From positions 11,956-75,955 of the forward strand of contig CBFIDI010000001.1 of assembly GCA_965661355.1 (NCBI GenBank): DNA of 64,000 nt. Reading direction: 5' to 3'. Both the position numbers and the translations under genes were made by a program. The DNA comes from Rickettsiales bacterium (GTDB lineage: Bacteria; Pseudomonadota; Alphaproteobacteria; Rickettsiales; UBA1997). Positions 56,866 to 59,800 of the stretch are shown here, piece by piece (the first letter of the stretch is position 1; every line of letters begins with the position of its first letter). The notes under the pieces are model-generated. The model made no database searches. It saw only the letters and a program-made list of their open reading frames with translations, and was not told the origin of the DNA.

Positions 56866-59800
56866 ATGACAAAAAATTTAGAAAATTTTAACCACAAAAT
56901 TTCGCAAGAAAAATGGCAAAGAACTTGGGAAGAGCAGGGCGTTTTTGCCTTTGACGAAAAAAGCGAGAAAGAGAAATATTATGTGCTAGAGATGTTTCCT
57001 TATCCTTCGGGCAAAATTCATATGGGGCATTTAAGAAATTATGCAATTGGTGATGTAATAGCGCGCTTTAAGGCTATGAAGGGTTATAATGTTTTGCATC
57101 CAATGGGGTTTGATTCTTTTGGTTTGCCAGCTGAAAACGCAGCACTTGAACATAAAATTCACCCCAAAGAATGGACCTTAGAAAATATTAAGGTGATGAA
57201 GCAAGAATTAAAGTCAATTGGCCTTTCTGTTGACTGGAAGCGTGAATTAGCAACATGTTTGCCTGATTATTTTAAGCATGAACAGAAAATATTTATTGAT
57301 TTTGTCAAGAATGGCTTGGCTTATCAAAAAGAATCTTATGTTAACTGGGATCCGGTTGACCAAACAGTTTTGGCAAATGAGCAAGTTATTGATGGGCGCG
57401 GCTGGAGAAGCGGCGCTCTAACACAAAAGAAAAAGCTTAAACAATGGTTTTTAAAAGTTTCTGATTTCAGCGAAGAGCTATTGCAAGATTTAAAGAGGCT
57501 TAATGGTTGGGACGAGCGCGTTTTGTCAATGCAAGAAAAATGGATTGGCAAAAGCGAGGGTTTAAAATTAAAATTTCAGCTCAATTTTAGCAAGGCCGAC
57601 AAAGATAAAGAGAAATTGACAGAAATTGAAGTTTACACAACCCGTCCCGATACTATTTTTGGCGCTAGTTTTATTGCAATTTCATCACAGCACCAACTTG
57701 CTGTTGAACTTGGGCGTAAAAATAGCAAAATTCAAGAATTTATTGATGAATGTAATTCTGAAAATTATGACAACGAAGAGACAAAAAATGACGCACCGGA
57801 GCAGGAAAAAAGAGGTATTTTTACTGATTTAAAAGTAAATCACCCTTTTAAAGAAGGCGAAAAGCTGGGCGTTTATATTGCTAATTTTGTTTTGATGGAT
57901 TATGGCACAGGCGCGGTCTTTGGCTGTCCGGCGCATGATCAGCGCGATTTTGATTTTGCGACAAAATATGATTTGCCAATTAAAAAAGTTGTTAACAATT
58001 ATGAAGAGCCCGCTTTTGAGACACAAAGACTTGTTATTCGTAAAGTTGAAGAGAAAGATTTTAAAAATTTACTAAAACTAAATAAAGAAAATTCTAATCA
58101 TAAATTTACGCCAGATAATAATAATGATGAAGAAAATTCGATTGAAAATGTCACAAAAAAACAAATAGAACAGGCCAAGAAAGATGCGCAAAAAGGTTAT
58201 TTTAAATTTGTCATTTTTGATAAGAAAAATAACTTTATAGGTGAAATGAATTTTTGTCCAGATCAATATCTTAGTGGCGGCGATGTAGGCGATGAATTAT
58301 TTTATAAAAAAAGCGATATTGATTTTGGCTATGCTATTTTAAAAGAATTTCAAGGTCAGGGTTTTGCAACCGAGGCCGCAAAAGCCGTGATTGACTTTGC
58401 TTTTACTACAAATAATTCTCTTGAACGATTAATTGCAGCTTCGCATCCGCAAAATGAAAAAAGTAAAAATGTTTTAGAAAGATGTGGCTTTAACTATATT
58501 GATGATTTTGAAATTGACGATGATAAATTAAAGGCAATTTGGAGTGTTTTTGAGTTAAAAAAAGAAGATTTTGTACCTTTTGAAGCTAATTCTGGTAATG
58601 GTAAAATAATTAATTCTGAATTTTTAAACGATCTTTCAATTGATGAAGCTAAAAGTAAAATTATAAAATTAGCCGAGGAAAAAAATATTGGCACACGCCA
58701 AGTTAATTATCGTTTGCGCGATTGGGGCGTAAGTCGCCAGCGCTATTGGGGCTGTCCTATTCCTATACTTTATCTTGAAAATGGCGAAGTTGTTCCTGAA
58801 AAAGAAGAGAATTTGCCAGTTGAATTGCCCGAAGATATTAACTTTGATGGCCAAGGCAATCCGCTTGCAAAGCATGAAAGTTGGCAAAACACCAGTTATG
58901 TTGATGAAAATGGAATAGAGCATAAAGCAAGGCGCGAAACCGATACTTTTGATACATTTTTTGAAAGCTCGTGGTATTTTTTGCGTTATATTTCGGCGCC
59001 CGACAACAAACCCTTTGACAGCGATTTAGTTAATAAATTTATGCCAGTTGACAAATATATTGGCGGCGTTGAGCATGCGGTTTTGCATCTTTTATATGCA
59101 AGATTTTTTGTTAAGGCACTAAAGAAATGCGGTTACTTAAATTTTGACGAGCCTTTTAAAAATTTACTGACGCAAGGAATGGTTTGTCATCAAACCTTTA
59201 AAGACGAAGATGGAAAATGGGTTTTACCCAGCGATGTTACGCAAAAAGACGGCGAGTATTTTCATATTGAAACTGGCAAAAAAATTAGCGCCGGCAGAAG
59301 TGAAAAAATGAGTAAGTCGAAGAAAAATGTAGTTGAGCCAGCAGGAATAATAAGAGATTATGGGGCTGATACTGCGCGACTTTTTATGCTTTCGGACTCG
59401 CCAGTAGACCGTGATTTACAATGGCTTGAAAGCGGAATTGATGGTTCGTGGAAATATGTTAACAGAATATGGAAATTGGTTTGTGGCTTTGAAAATGAAA
59501 TTGGCAATGATTCTTTACAAAGCTTAGCCCAAGAAAATTATGAATTTTATGAAGAAAAATCTTTAAATTCATTGACAAGTGAGGCGCAAAAGATTATTAA
59601 ACTAGCCCATAAAACAATAAGTAGCTGTGAAATTCATCTTGAAAATAATAATTTTAATAGCGCAATTGCCAAAATTCGTGAATTTTCAAATGCACTAGAA
59701 AAATTTACACCAAAAGACCATGAGGGCAATAAGGCAAAATATTTTACTTTAAAGACTTTAATTTTGTTAATTTCGCCTTTTATGCCTCATTTGGCCGAGA

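Follow-up and report, generated by a model that had tools for sequence, protein, structure and literature searches.

A complete GNAT acetyltransferase domain within the CP1 loop of a Rickettsiales leucyl-tRNA synthetase

Bacterial class Ia aminoacyl-tRNA synthetases are usually viewed as housekeeping enzymes of fixed architecture. In the 64,000-nucleotide stretch analyzed here (hereafter, the window), which belongs to a Rickettsiales bacterium (GCA_965661355.1, contig CBFIDI010000001.1, positions 11,956 to 75,955), the leuS gene for leucyl-tRNA synthetase (LeuRS) contains an acetyltransferase domain of the GNAT superfamily within connective peptide 1 (CP1), the editing region. How did such a domain come to reside in this enzyme, and what may it do there? 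In this work, we found that the same CP1 loop holds a domain of unrelated fold in many close relatives and GNAT domains in at least three further LeuRS lineages, and that a closely related GNAT occurs in a DNA polymerase. These patterns identify an insertion hotspot, at which the GNAT is most simply read as a lineage-specific replacement of an ancestral module or as the filler of an emptied loop. A role in detoxification or immunity is our tentative preference among several candidate functions.

The GNAT insert and its LeuRS host

The leuS gene is a single open reading frame (ORF) of 1067 amino acids without interruption, as an earlier note on this DNA, made from the sequence alone, had described. 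Its product matches the bacterial LeuRS model TIGR00396 (leuS_bact) at 998.7 bits (cutoff 548.4), in a match that is broken into two stretches around the insert, and the match to the LeuRS editing domain (PF13603; aa 225-385, profile positions 2-150 of 185) breaks off at the same region. The spacing from AHDxRDFxFA to LRDWG is 251 residues vs. 59-68 in related LeuRSs that lack an insert, and the comparison of gap lengths gives ~187-190 extra residues, in agreement with the ~190 reported earlier. The insert enters CP1 in its C-terminal part, ~15 residues past the conserved Asp motif for editing. The LeuRS landmarks were all located where the earlier note had placed them, namely, GTGAVFGCPAHDQRDFDFA (aa 347-365), YRLRDWGVSRQRYWG (aa 615-629), HMGH, and KMSKS, together with QGQGFATEA (aa 496-504) of the insert, and the catalytic and editing motifs are intact. 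Residues T258, T259, R260, P261, T263, H357, D358, and D361 are invariant in the alignment of LeuRS relatives (A1). The features of the gene are as follows, with the supporting evidence in parentheses.

56866..60069 (+): leuS, bacterial housekeeping-type LeuRS, 1067 aa (ORF, TIGR00396, fold, and synteny)
57019..57030 (+): class I signature HMGH (HIGH), aa 52-55 (invariant column among relatives, A1)
57538..57993 (+): portion of the CP1 editing domain upstream of the insert, aa 225-376 (PF13603, A1)
57637-57654 (+): Thr-rich motif TTRPDT of CP1, aa 258-263 (invariant columns)
57931-57948 (+): AHDQRD of CP1, with conserved editing Asp residues, aa 356-361
57994..58599 (+): whole insert relative to insert-free LeuRSs, aa 377-578 (alignments A1 and A2, gap-length census)
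57994..58017 (+): N-terminal linker NNYEEPAF, aa 377-384 (alignment, DSSP)
58012..58560 (+): folded GNAT domain, PF13302 Acetyltransf_3, aa 383-565 (Pfam, DSSP, AlphaFold2, Foldseek)
58069..58092 (+): subfamily signature LLKLNKEN, aa 402-409, at the end of helix alpha1 (invariant columns of alignment A3)
58351..58368 (+): acetyl-CoA pyrophosphate-binding motif A, Q-G-Q-G-F-A, aa 496-501, followed by T502 and E503 (conservation)
58453..58464 (+): N-E-K-S, aa 530-533, with the conserved Asn and Ser of helix alpha4 (conservation among standalone relatives)
58561..58599 (+): C-terminal flexible linker, aa 566-578 (predicted local distance difference test, pLDDT, below 50 at aa 570-576)
58600..58707 (+): rest of CP1 downstream of the insert (G.IINSEFLNDL, then a helix), running into YRLRDWGVSRQRYWG (A1, A2; native flanks)
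59305..59319 (+): class I signature KMSKS, aa 814-818 (motif position; invariant in A1)

The insert carries a match to PF13302 (Acetyltransf_3) at aa 388-543, with E-values of 1.4e-23 (search with the whole protein) and 6e-25 (search with the insert only). The score of 84-89 bits compares with a gathering cutoff of 25.4, and the insert covers the full model (profile positions 1-138 of 138). The profile search that had been proposed earlier thus returned PF13302 on the insert and TIGR00396 and PF13603 on the flanks, and the span given at that time (58015..58575) is essentially that of the folded domain. The description of the insert as a complete RimJ/RimL-type GNAT was borne out, and this label is correct at the level of the Pfam family. 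The RimL equivalog model NF007539 scores the insert at 22-27 bits (cutoff 184), and RimL 1S7L ranks 16th by fold. The nearest solved relatives by sequence profile are 3FBU (an uncharacterized GNAT), PA3944, 2FCK, and SpeG.

The full-length AlphaFold2 model (pLDDT 85.5, predicted TM-score 0.76) has a LeuRS scaffold that matches the LeuRSs of E. coli, N. gonorrhoeae, and T. thermophilus (Foldseek E-values 1e-63 to 1e-77, TM-target 0.80-0.89), and the GNAT domain is not present in these matched structures. Within this model, the GNAT forms a discrete unit with pLDDT blocks mostly of 73-94; when modeled alone, it reached a pLDDT of 87.4 and a predicted TM-score of 0.86. The earlier note had asked whether the GNAT is a discrete domain hinged off CP1; in this model, a complete GNAT is predicted to be displayed by flexible linkers on a CP1 surface loop of LeuRS. 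Foldseek searches with the GNAT model returned RimJ (3IGR, 6C37), 3FBU, 2FCK, RimL 1S7L, and PA3944 with a probability of 1.0, and YdaF and SpeG were also among the fold matches. The domain keeps T386, L389, D398, G499, A501, T502, E503, and S533, which are all the residues invariant across 67 standalone relatives, as well as N530, which is nearly invariant among them. Judged by these residues and by the model, the GNAT looks competent for catalysis and cofactor binding.

An intein or homing element was considered and rejected. Inteins resemble the insert in that they lie in frame in conserved essential proteins, are patchy among relatives, and have DnaE among their hosts. However, inteins have a Hint domain, an N-terminal Cys or Ser, and a C-terminal His-Asn followed by Cys, Ser, or Thr. 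The insert begins at N377 and ends at G577-N578, before G579, with no intein residues at its edges, and no Hint or LAGLIDADG/HNH endonuclease domains were found in the Pfam scan of LeuRS and the insert. The junctions have no flanking repeat of note, and no target-site duplication or mobility machinery was seen there. The earlier note had likewise seen no intein features. The GNAT domain presumably stays in the mature LeuRS.

Inserts in related LeuRSs and in other proteins

Of the 116 closest classifiable LeuRSs, 72 lack an insert and 40 have a domain of ~195 aa at the insert position of the window, in the loop behind KYxLPIKxVV. This domain belongs to PF01841, the transglutaminase-like (TGase-like) family (45-47 bits in P0002 and L003, cutoff 23). 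At the level of genomes, it was found in the LeuRS loop at 20 of 80 loci from species-representative genomes, which are all Rickettsiales or alphaproteobacterial metagenome-assembled genomes (MAGs), many of lake-metagenome origin; the relatives are freshwater Rickettsiales MAGs. Examples include the loci L006 (6001-9156), L019 (6001-9177), L031, and L056 (of L001-L062) and the proteins P0002, P0003, and P0005. The two inserts occupy an identical loop, are similar in size (~195 vs. ~190 aa), and agree in host clade and synteny, and each is an enzyme fold with a conserved active site of its own. In contrast, their folds and chemistries are unrelated (Cys-His-Asp vs. acetyl-CoA-dependent), and the TGase-like module is present in 40/116 LeuRSs and co-diverges with its host, whereas the GNAT is confined to a single lineage of the clade.

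The TGase-like Cys (in FCFGK), His (in IIHxxN), and Asp (in RxD) are kept in 37-38 of 38 copies, and the pairwise identity of this insert follows that of the LeuRS core (Spearman 0.81). Based on this conservation and co-divergence, the TGase-like insert is old, selected, and co-inherited with its host. One copy, P0059, lacks the Cys (FGFGK). In the neighbor-joining tree, TGase-bearing and insert-free LeuRSs are interleaved throughout, and the domain was therefore cleanly lost on many occasions.

The sister of the window LeuRS is P0002 (74.9% core identity; next best ~70%), which carries the TGase-like module. The GNAT is therefore most simply explained as a lineage-specific replacement of the ancestral module, or as the filler of a loop that had been emptied. 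The LeuRS sequence that flanks the insert on both sides is native and similar to P0002, not to P0129, a GNAT-bearing LeuRS described below. We therefore rejected the arrival of the GNAT through a leuS recombination tract; the domain alone was exchanged. Taken together, the sequences show that the CP1 loop is an insertion hotspot. In insert-free LeuRSs (L009, L038, L053, L022, and L047), the gap after KYxLPIKxV is 59-88 aa, with low-complexity extensions in some MAGs, and such a length-variable loop fits a structurally permissive site. In the literature searched, we found no description of LeuRS-GNAT or LeuRS-transglutaminase proteins.

The codon composition of the insert bears on its source. 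Given its amino acids and the codon usage of the genome, the insert (57994-58599) was expected to have 57.2 GC-ending codons, and 36 were observed (z = -3.45), a value below all 86 background windows (lowest z = -2.58). This deficit at third codon positions is confined to the insert, with the leuS flanks at z = +0.58 and -1.38, so the earlier view that the insert has native codon usage was only half right. The sibling GNAT modules reside in genomes of 28% GC, with a third-position GC content of ~0.2. The deficit suggests an origin in a more AT-rich genome, and the GNAT cassette was probably acquired from such a donor.

Further hosts of related GNATs came to light only in an exhaustive HMMER search, in which the insert was queried against 1.84 billion representatives. 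Homologue searches of a word index, with either the insert or the subfamily profile as the query, returned only standalone GNATs of up to 36% identity, a metagenome scan with the subfamily alignment found nothing, and a tblastn search found no further GNAT copies in the window. The three top HMMER matches are long proteins, namely, the LeuRSs P0129 (1036 aa) and P0128 (1310 aa) and, as the third best, the DnaE protein P0130. By TIGR00396, P0253 (991 aa), which ranks lower in the match list, is also a LeuRS, as are P0129 and P0128; P0278 is a near-identical JGI sibling of P0129. Alignment A2 places a GNAT in exactly the CP1 loop of the window in P0129/P0278, P0253, and P0128. The cores of these LeuRSs are 51-53.5% identical to that of the window, and they were placed outside the window clade. 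This evidence comes from independent ENA, JGI, Logan, and NCBI assemblies, and the contigs with the other GNAT hosts range from 28 to 43% GC (34.3% in the window). A shared genome for the window and the contigs of the DnaE-GNAT and P0129 was rejected based on GC content (34.3 vs. 28%) and tetranucleotide correlation (r = 0.52-0.63 vs. 0.95 within the window).

P0128 (L084, 112-4044; GCA_945861605.1) has three GNATs, located at the start of CP1, at the site used in the window, and at the position of the leucine-specific domain. The three are mutually divergent (23-27% identity), and the acetyl-CoA motif of the first is degenerate (HNQKIAS). P0130 (L082, 5498-8647; GCA_964949135.1) is the alpha subunit of a DNA polymerase III by its match to NF004226 (1109 bits). 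Its GNAT sits between the PHP and palm regions and is 44-48% identical to that of the window. Relative to the DnaE profile, which has 1146 positions, P0130 stops at position 847, and a gene on the opposite strand follows, so this DnaE could be a truncated or split protein.

Identities of 37-47% were found among the GNATs of the window, P0129, P0128 (site 2), and P0130, and these four have in common the signature LLxLNKENxNNxFTP...SIExxT, which is absent from the standalone relatives. Its elements in the window are LLKLNKEN (aa 402-409), TP (aa 415-416), and IE..T (aa 426-430). In the full-length model, helices alpha1 and alpha2 span aa 396-409 and 426-442, and the signature extends from alpha1 across the intervening loop to the first part of alpha2. 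This region lines the acceptor site in GNATs (review PMC4964394). As far as these matches indicate, the window GNAT belongs to a small subfamily that is found only as in-frame inserts.

More distant GNATs are present in two isoleucyl-tRNA synthetases (IleRSs). One is P0263 (L085, 6001-9216), which comes from the same MAG set (CAYPUN01, GCA_964413985.1) as L006; this MAG thus has both an IleRS-GNAT and a LeuRS with a TGase-like insert, and enzyme domains inserted in class Ia synthetases are therefore a feature of this bacterial group. The other is on L083 (2451-5867, - strand; TIGR00392, 835 bits), next to the divergently oriented gene of the LeuRS-GNAT P0253 (6001-8976, + strand), such that two GNAT-bearing class Ia synthetases lie side by side in one genome. 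A curated model of a GNAT-bearing isoleucine--tRNA ligase, NCBIfam NF040702 (ileS_w_GNAT), is already on record, and we found no paper on the function of these proteins. Like the window LeuRS, its members are class Ia editing synthetases with an internal GNAT, and the window insert aligns to the GNAT part of the model (positions 283-430, E = 6.5e-8). Unlike it, the host is an IleRS; the window LeuRS scores 98.6 bits against a cutoff of 1999, and the IleRS-GNATs P0263 and L083 are also far below this cutoff (295 and 314 bits, respectively). With at least three further LeuRS-GNAT lineages at the same loop, two IleRS-GNATs, and this model, the architecture is rare yet recurrent, and not unique.

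Other proteins among the distant matches include P0211 (JGI, 697 aa), in which a GNAT is N-terminally fused to a double-ABC ATPase (YejF-like; JGI name, "microcin C transport system ATP-binding protein"), and P0140 (1754 aa), with nine tandem PF13302 domains. Many of the matches with a length of ~340 aa consist of two GNATs.

The window is an ordinary piece of chromosome that includes gyrA, sucA, sucB, rpoB, virB8, virB9, a DUF3576 gene, leuS, and a gene for an ABC exporter. The gene next to leuS is listed as context only.

60133..61989 (+): ABC exporter with ABC_membrane and ABC_tran (Pfam domains)

The order virB8-virB9-DUF3576-leuS-ABC exporter is the same in L006 and L019, which have the TGase-like insert, and in L007, L009, and L047, which have no insert. 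This recurrence identifies leuS as the housekeeping copy, and with all its motifs kept, it is the ordinary housekeeping LeuRS of the organism. The exporter orthologues in these five loci (45-51% identity) are all directly downstream of leuS. The earlier note had pointed out the exporter immediately behind leuS; a functional link to the GNAT was rejected, since the gene is syntenic in relatives with and without an insert. Upstream of leuS, the stretch 55300-56050 has a GC content of 0.45-0.51 (0.34 in the whole window) and encodes a long, low-complexity C-terminal tail rich in Pro, Gly, Gln, and Ser of the CagX/VirB9 ORF (54706..56040); the listed GTG start of the DUF3576 ORF (55973) overlaps the end of this ORF.

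Candidate roles of the tethered GNAT

By analogy with known immunity enzymes, we tentatively favor the possibility that the GNAT is a target-tethered, amine-modifying module for detoxification or immunity. LeuRS would go on charging and proofreading tRNA-Leu as normal, and the GNAT would serve as an accessory acetyl-CoA-dependent N-acetyltransferase that neutralizes an amine-bearing inhibitor or an aberrant product near its target enzyme. It would then be the target-tethered counterpart of the MccE/RimL/TfxH-type immunity against synthetase inhibitors, and the TGase-like (amidase or acyl-transfer) module of the relatives would offer an alternative route to the same job.

This immunity role is favored because the hosts are mostly enzymes attacked by antibiotics that mimic aminoacyl-adenylates, and because GNATs are known to disarm the warheads of synthetase inhibitors through amine acetylation, as in MccE (PMC8323819, PMC9239234) and TfxH (bioRxiv 10.64898/2025.12.02.691738), with hydrolytic immunity enzymes (MccF and S51 peptidases) acting in parallel to MccE against microcin C (PMC9239234). 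The swap of a GNAT and an amidase-like Cys-His-Asp fold at one site mirrors that pairing of GNAT and hydrolase. Also, the patchy presence, replacement, and stacked divergent copies resemble systems of biological conflict, and a signature that is independent of the host and located at the usual acceptor region suggests a common small acceptor. This acceptor is probably not specific to leucine, since the DnaE-borne copy keeps the acceptor-site signature.

The MccE C-terminal domain, RimL, and TfxH acetylate a free amine on warheads that are peptides or resemble aminoacyl-nucleotides (PMC8323819, PMC9239234, bioRxiv 10.64898/2025.12.02.691738). They are in the same superfamily as the window GNAT, and RimL-like proteins are among its fold and sequence matches. 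However, they are free-standing or fused to a biosynthetic enzyme, in or near antibiotic clusters, whereas the window GNAT lies inside an enzyme of the target class with no cluster nearby. The resistance of AgnB2 to agrocin 84 is likewise a LeuRS-based answer to a LeuRS inhibitor, and its structure (5AH5) is among the matches of the window LeuRS, but AgnB2 is a second, insensitive LeuRS copy that has no added domain. The earlier note had raised antibiotics of the agrocin-84/TM84 type as possible targets, but TM84 itself is excluded as a substrate. The TM84 (agrocin 84) warhead bears a 2,3-dihydroxy-4-methylpentanamide, with hydroxyls in place of the amine of leucine and no alpha-amino group (PMC8323819), and N-acetylation by a GNAT therefore cannot neutralize it.

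Several points weigh against an immunity function. The sibling GNAT in the DnaE P0130 is unexpected if synthetase inhibitors are the target, and it weakens explanations tied to the chemistry of Leu-tRNA or leucyl-adenylate. A small-molecule detoxifier has no obvious need for tethering. The nearest solved relatives are 3FBU, PA3944, SpeG, and RimJ/RimL-like proteins, and MccE is not among the top solved matches by sequence profile or fold search. PADLOC returned no match for either the GNAT or the TGase-like insert, and no biosynthetic, transporter, or immunity genes linked to leuS were found in the window; the exporter follows leuS in relatives whatever the insert. In addition, the TGase-like module was lost repeatedly, such that these modules are dispensable whatever their role, and the exact protein of the window is known from one assembly only.

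A somewhat unlikely alternative, and still a serious one, is that the GNAT acetylates protein, either a Lys or the N-terminus of LeuRS or of a partner, and thereby couples synthetase activity (or, in DnaE, replication) to the supply of acetyl-CoA, or modifies a component of translation as RimJ and RimL do. The activity of E. coli LeuRS is reportedly modulated by lysine acetylation. The closest relatives by structure and sequence include RimJ (3IGR, 6C37) and RimL-type proteins (2FCK, 1S7L), which are protein N-alpha-acetyltransferases, and the DnaE host is more in keeping with a regulatory module that works independently of its host than with one specific for aminoacyl groups. Since transglutaminase-like enzymes also act on Lys and Gln of proteins, the module swap could even preserve a protein-directed role. 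Yet no target residue can be named, and the acceptor-region changes of the subfamily (LNKEN..TP, and W to Q/H before the GxA motif) separate this GNAT from its RimJ/RimL relatives. The three divergent GNATs of P0128 and the frequent clean loss of the TGase-like domain are not what would be expected of a core regulatory device. Alternatively, the GNAT, like the TGase-like module, may be a tolerated passenger, possibly a selfish in-frame cassette, that came to rest in a large essential protein, in a permissive surface loop, and contributes little or nothing to LeuRS biology. The spread of GNAT inserts over several loops and unrelated essential hosts (the three P0128 sites, two IleRSs, and DnaE), the degenerate cofactor motif at P0128 site 1, the many clean losses of the TGase-like module, the foreign composition of the GNAT, and its intein-like distribution all fit such a passenger. 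We nonetheless consider it unlikely, though a serious rival, because the window GNAT and its siblings (P0129, P0128 site 2, and P0130) keep all catalytic and cofactor residues, because the near-complete retention of the TGase-like triad and the co-divergence of that insert with its host indicate long purifying selection, and because the mobility machinery, splicing residues, repeats, and target-site duplications of a selfish element were not found at this locus.

The position of the insert beside the editing site invites another explanation, namely, that the GNAT N-acetylates charged or mischarged tRNA-Leu as its 3' end passes CP1, and thus marks or inactivates it. GNAT toxins that acetylate aminoacyl-tRNA exist (TacT, AtaT, and ItaT; PMC7367177, PMC7595197, PMC6125619), they share the GNAT fold, and aminoacyl-tRNA chemistry adjoins the tether point, which is only ~15 residues from the editing Asp motif; IleRS, the sister editing enzyme, also has GNATs within or adjoining CP1. 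However, those toxins are small dimeric proteins with a cognate antitoxin gene, whereas the window GNAT is of the PF13302 RimJ/RimL type and internal to leuS, with a DUF3576 protein and an ABC exporter as neighbors and no antitoxin gene. The TacT, AtaT, and ItaT structures are not among its top matches. Toxicity would be expected if the sole housekeeping LeuRS acetylated Leu-tRNA constitutively. The intact editing residues presumably retain hydrolytic proofreading, and DnaE never meets aminoacyl-tRNA. Such a role therefore seems very improbable. Even less credible is an artefact of assembly or binning, in which a fragment of a GNAT gene was mis-joined into the leuS of a MAG. The exact protein forms a singleton cluster, is not present in the 80 related GTDB loci, and has an insert unlike its flanks in composition. 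Against an artefact, both junctions are in frame and fall within the single loop in which relatives carry their inserts, the inserted domain is complete with linkers, no repeats that would promote a mis-join are present, and assemblies from four sources (ENA, JGI, Logan, and NCBI) independently have homologous GNATs at the same LeuRS loop.

If the immunity role that we tentatively favor is extended to all hosts, GNAT and TGase-like domains would be interchangeable, laterally moving in-frame cassettes that settle in surface loops of essential nucleic-acid enzymes, next to their proofreading modules (CP1 in LeuRS and IleRS, and the PHP-palm junction in DnaE), in AT-rich, host-associated bacteria, and act there as target-anchored immunity against amine-bearing inhibitors. 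This extension is rather improbable as it stands. We know of no description of resistance built into the target protein in that way.

Implications

Synthetases with added domains are already known, as is the GNAT family concerned, and among curated models, that of NCBIfam for IleRS is the sole precedent. What is new beyond the earlier note is the hotspot, the module swap, and the same cassette in IleRS and DnaE. One CP1 loop has served as an evolutionary docking site that accepted two unrelated enzyme domains, and the same GNAT subfamily or cassette appears to have spread to hosts of the IleRS class and to DnaE. The loop also offers a naturally validated location for engineered domain insertion in LeuRS, and the LeuRSs with no insert, with the TGase-like domain, with one GNAT, and with three GNATs provide a natural comparator set for experiments. 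If the modules are active, they would represent either a new kind of protection of an antibiotic target, with the detoxifier fused to the target itself, or a new acetyl-CoA-linked control of translation, which would be of interest to researchers of synthetases, antibiotic resistance, and GNATs.

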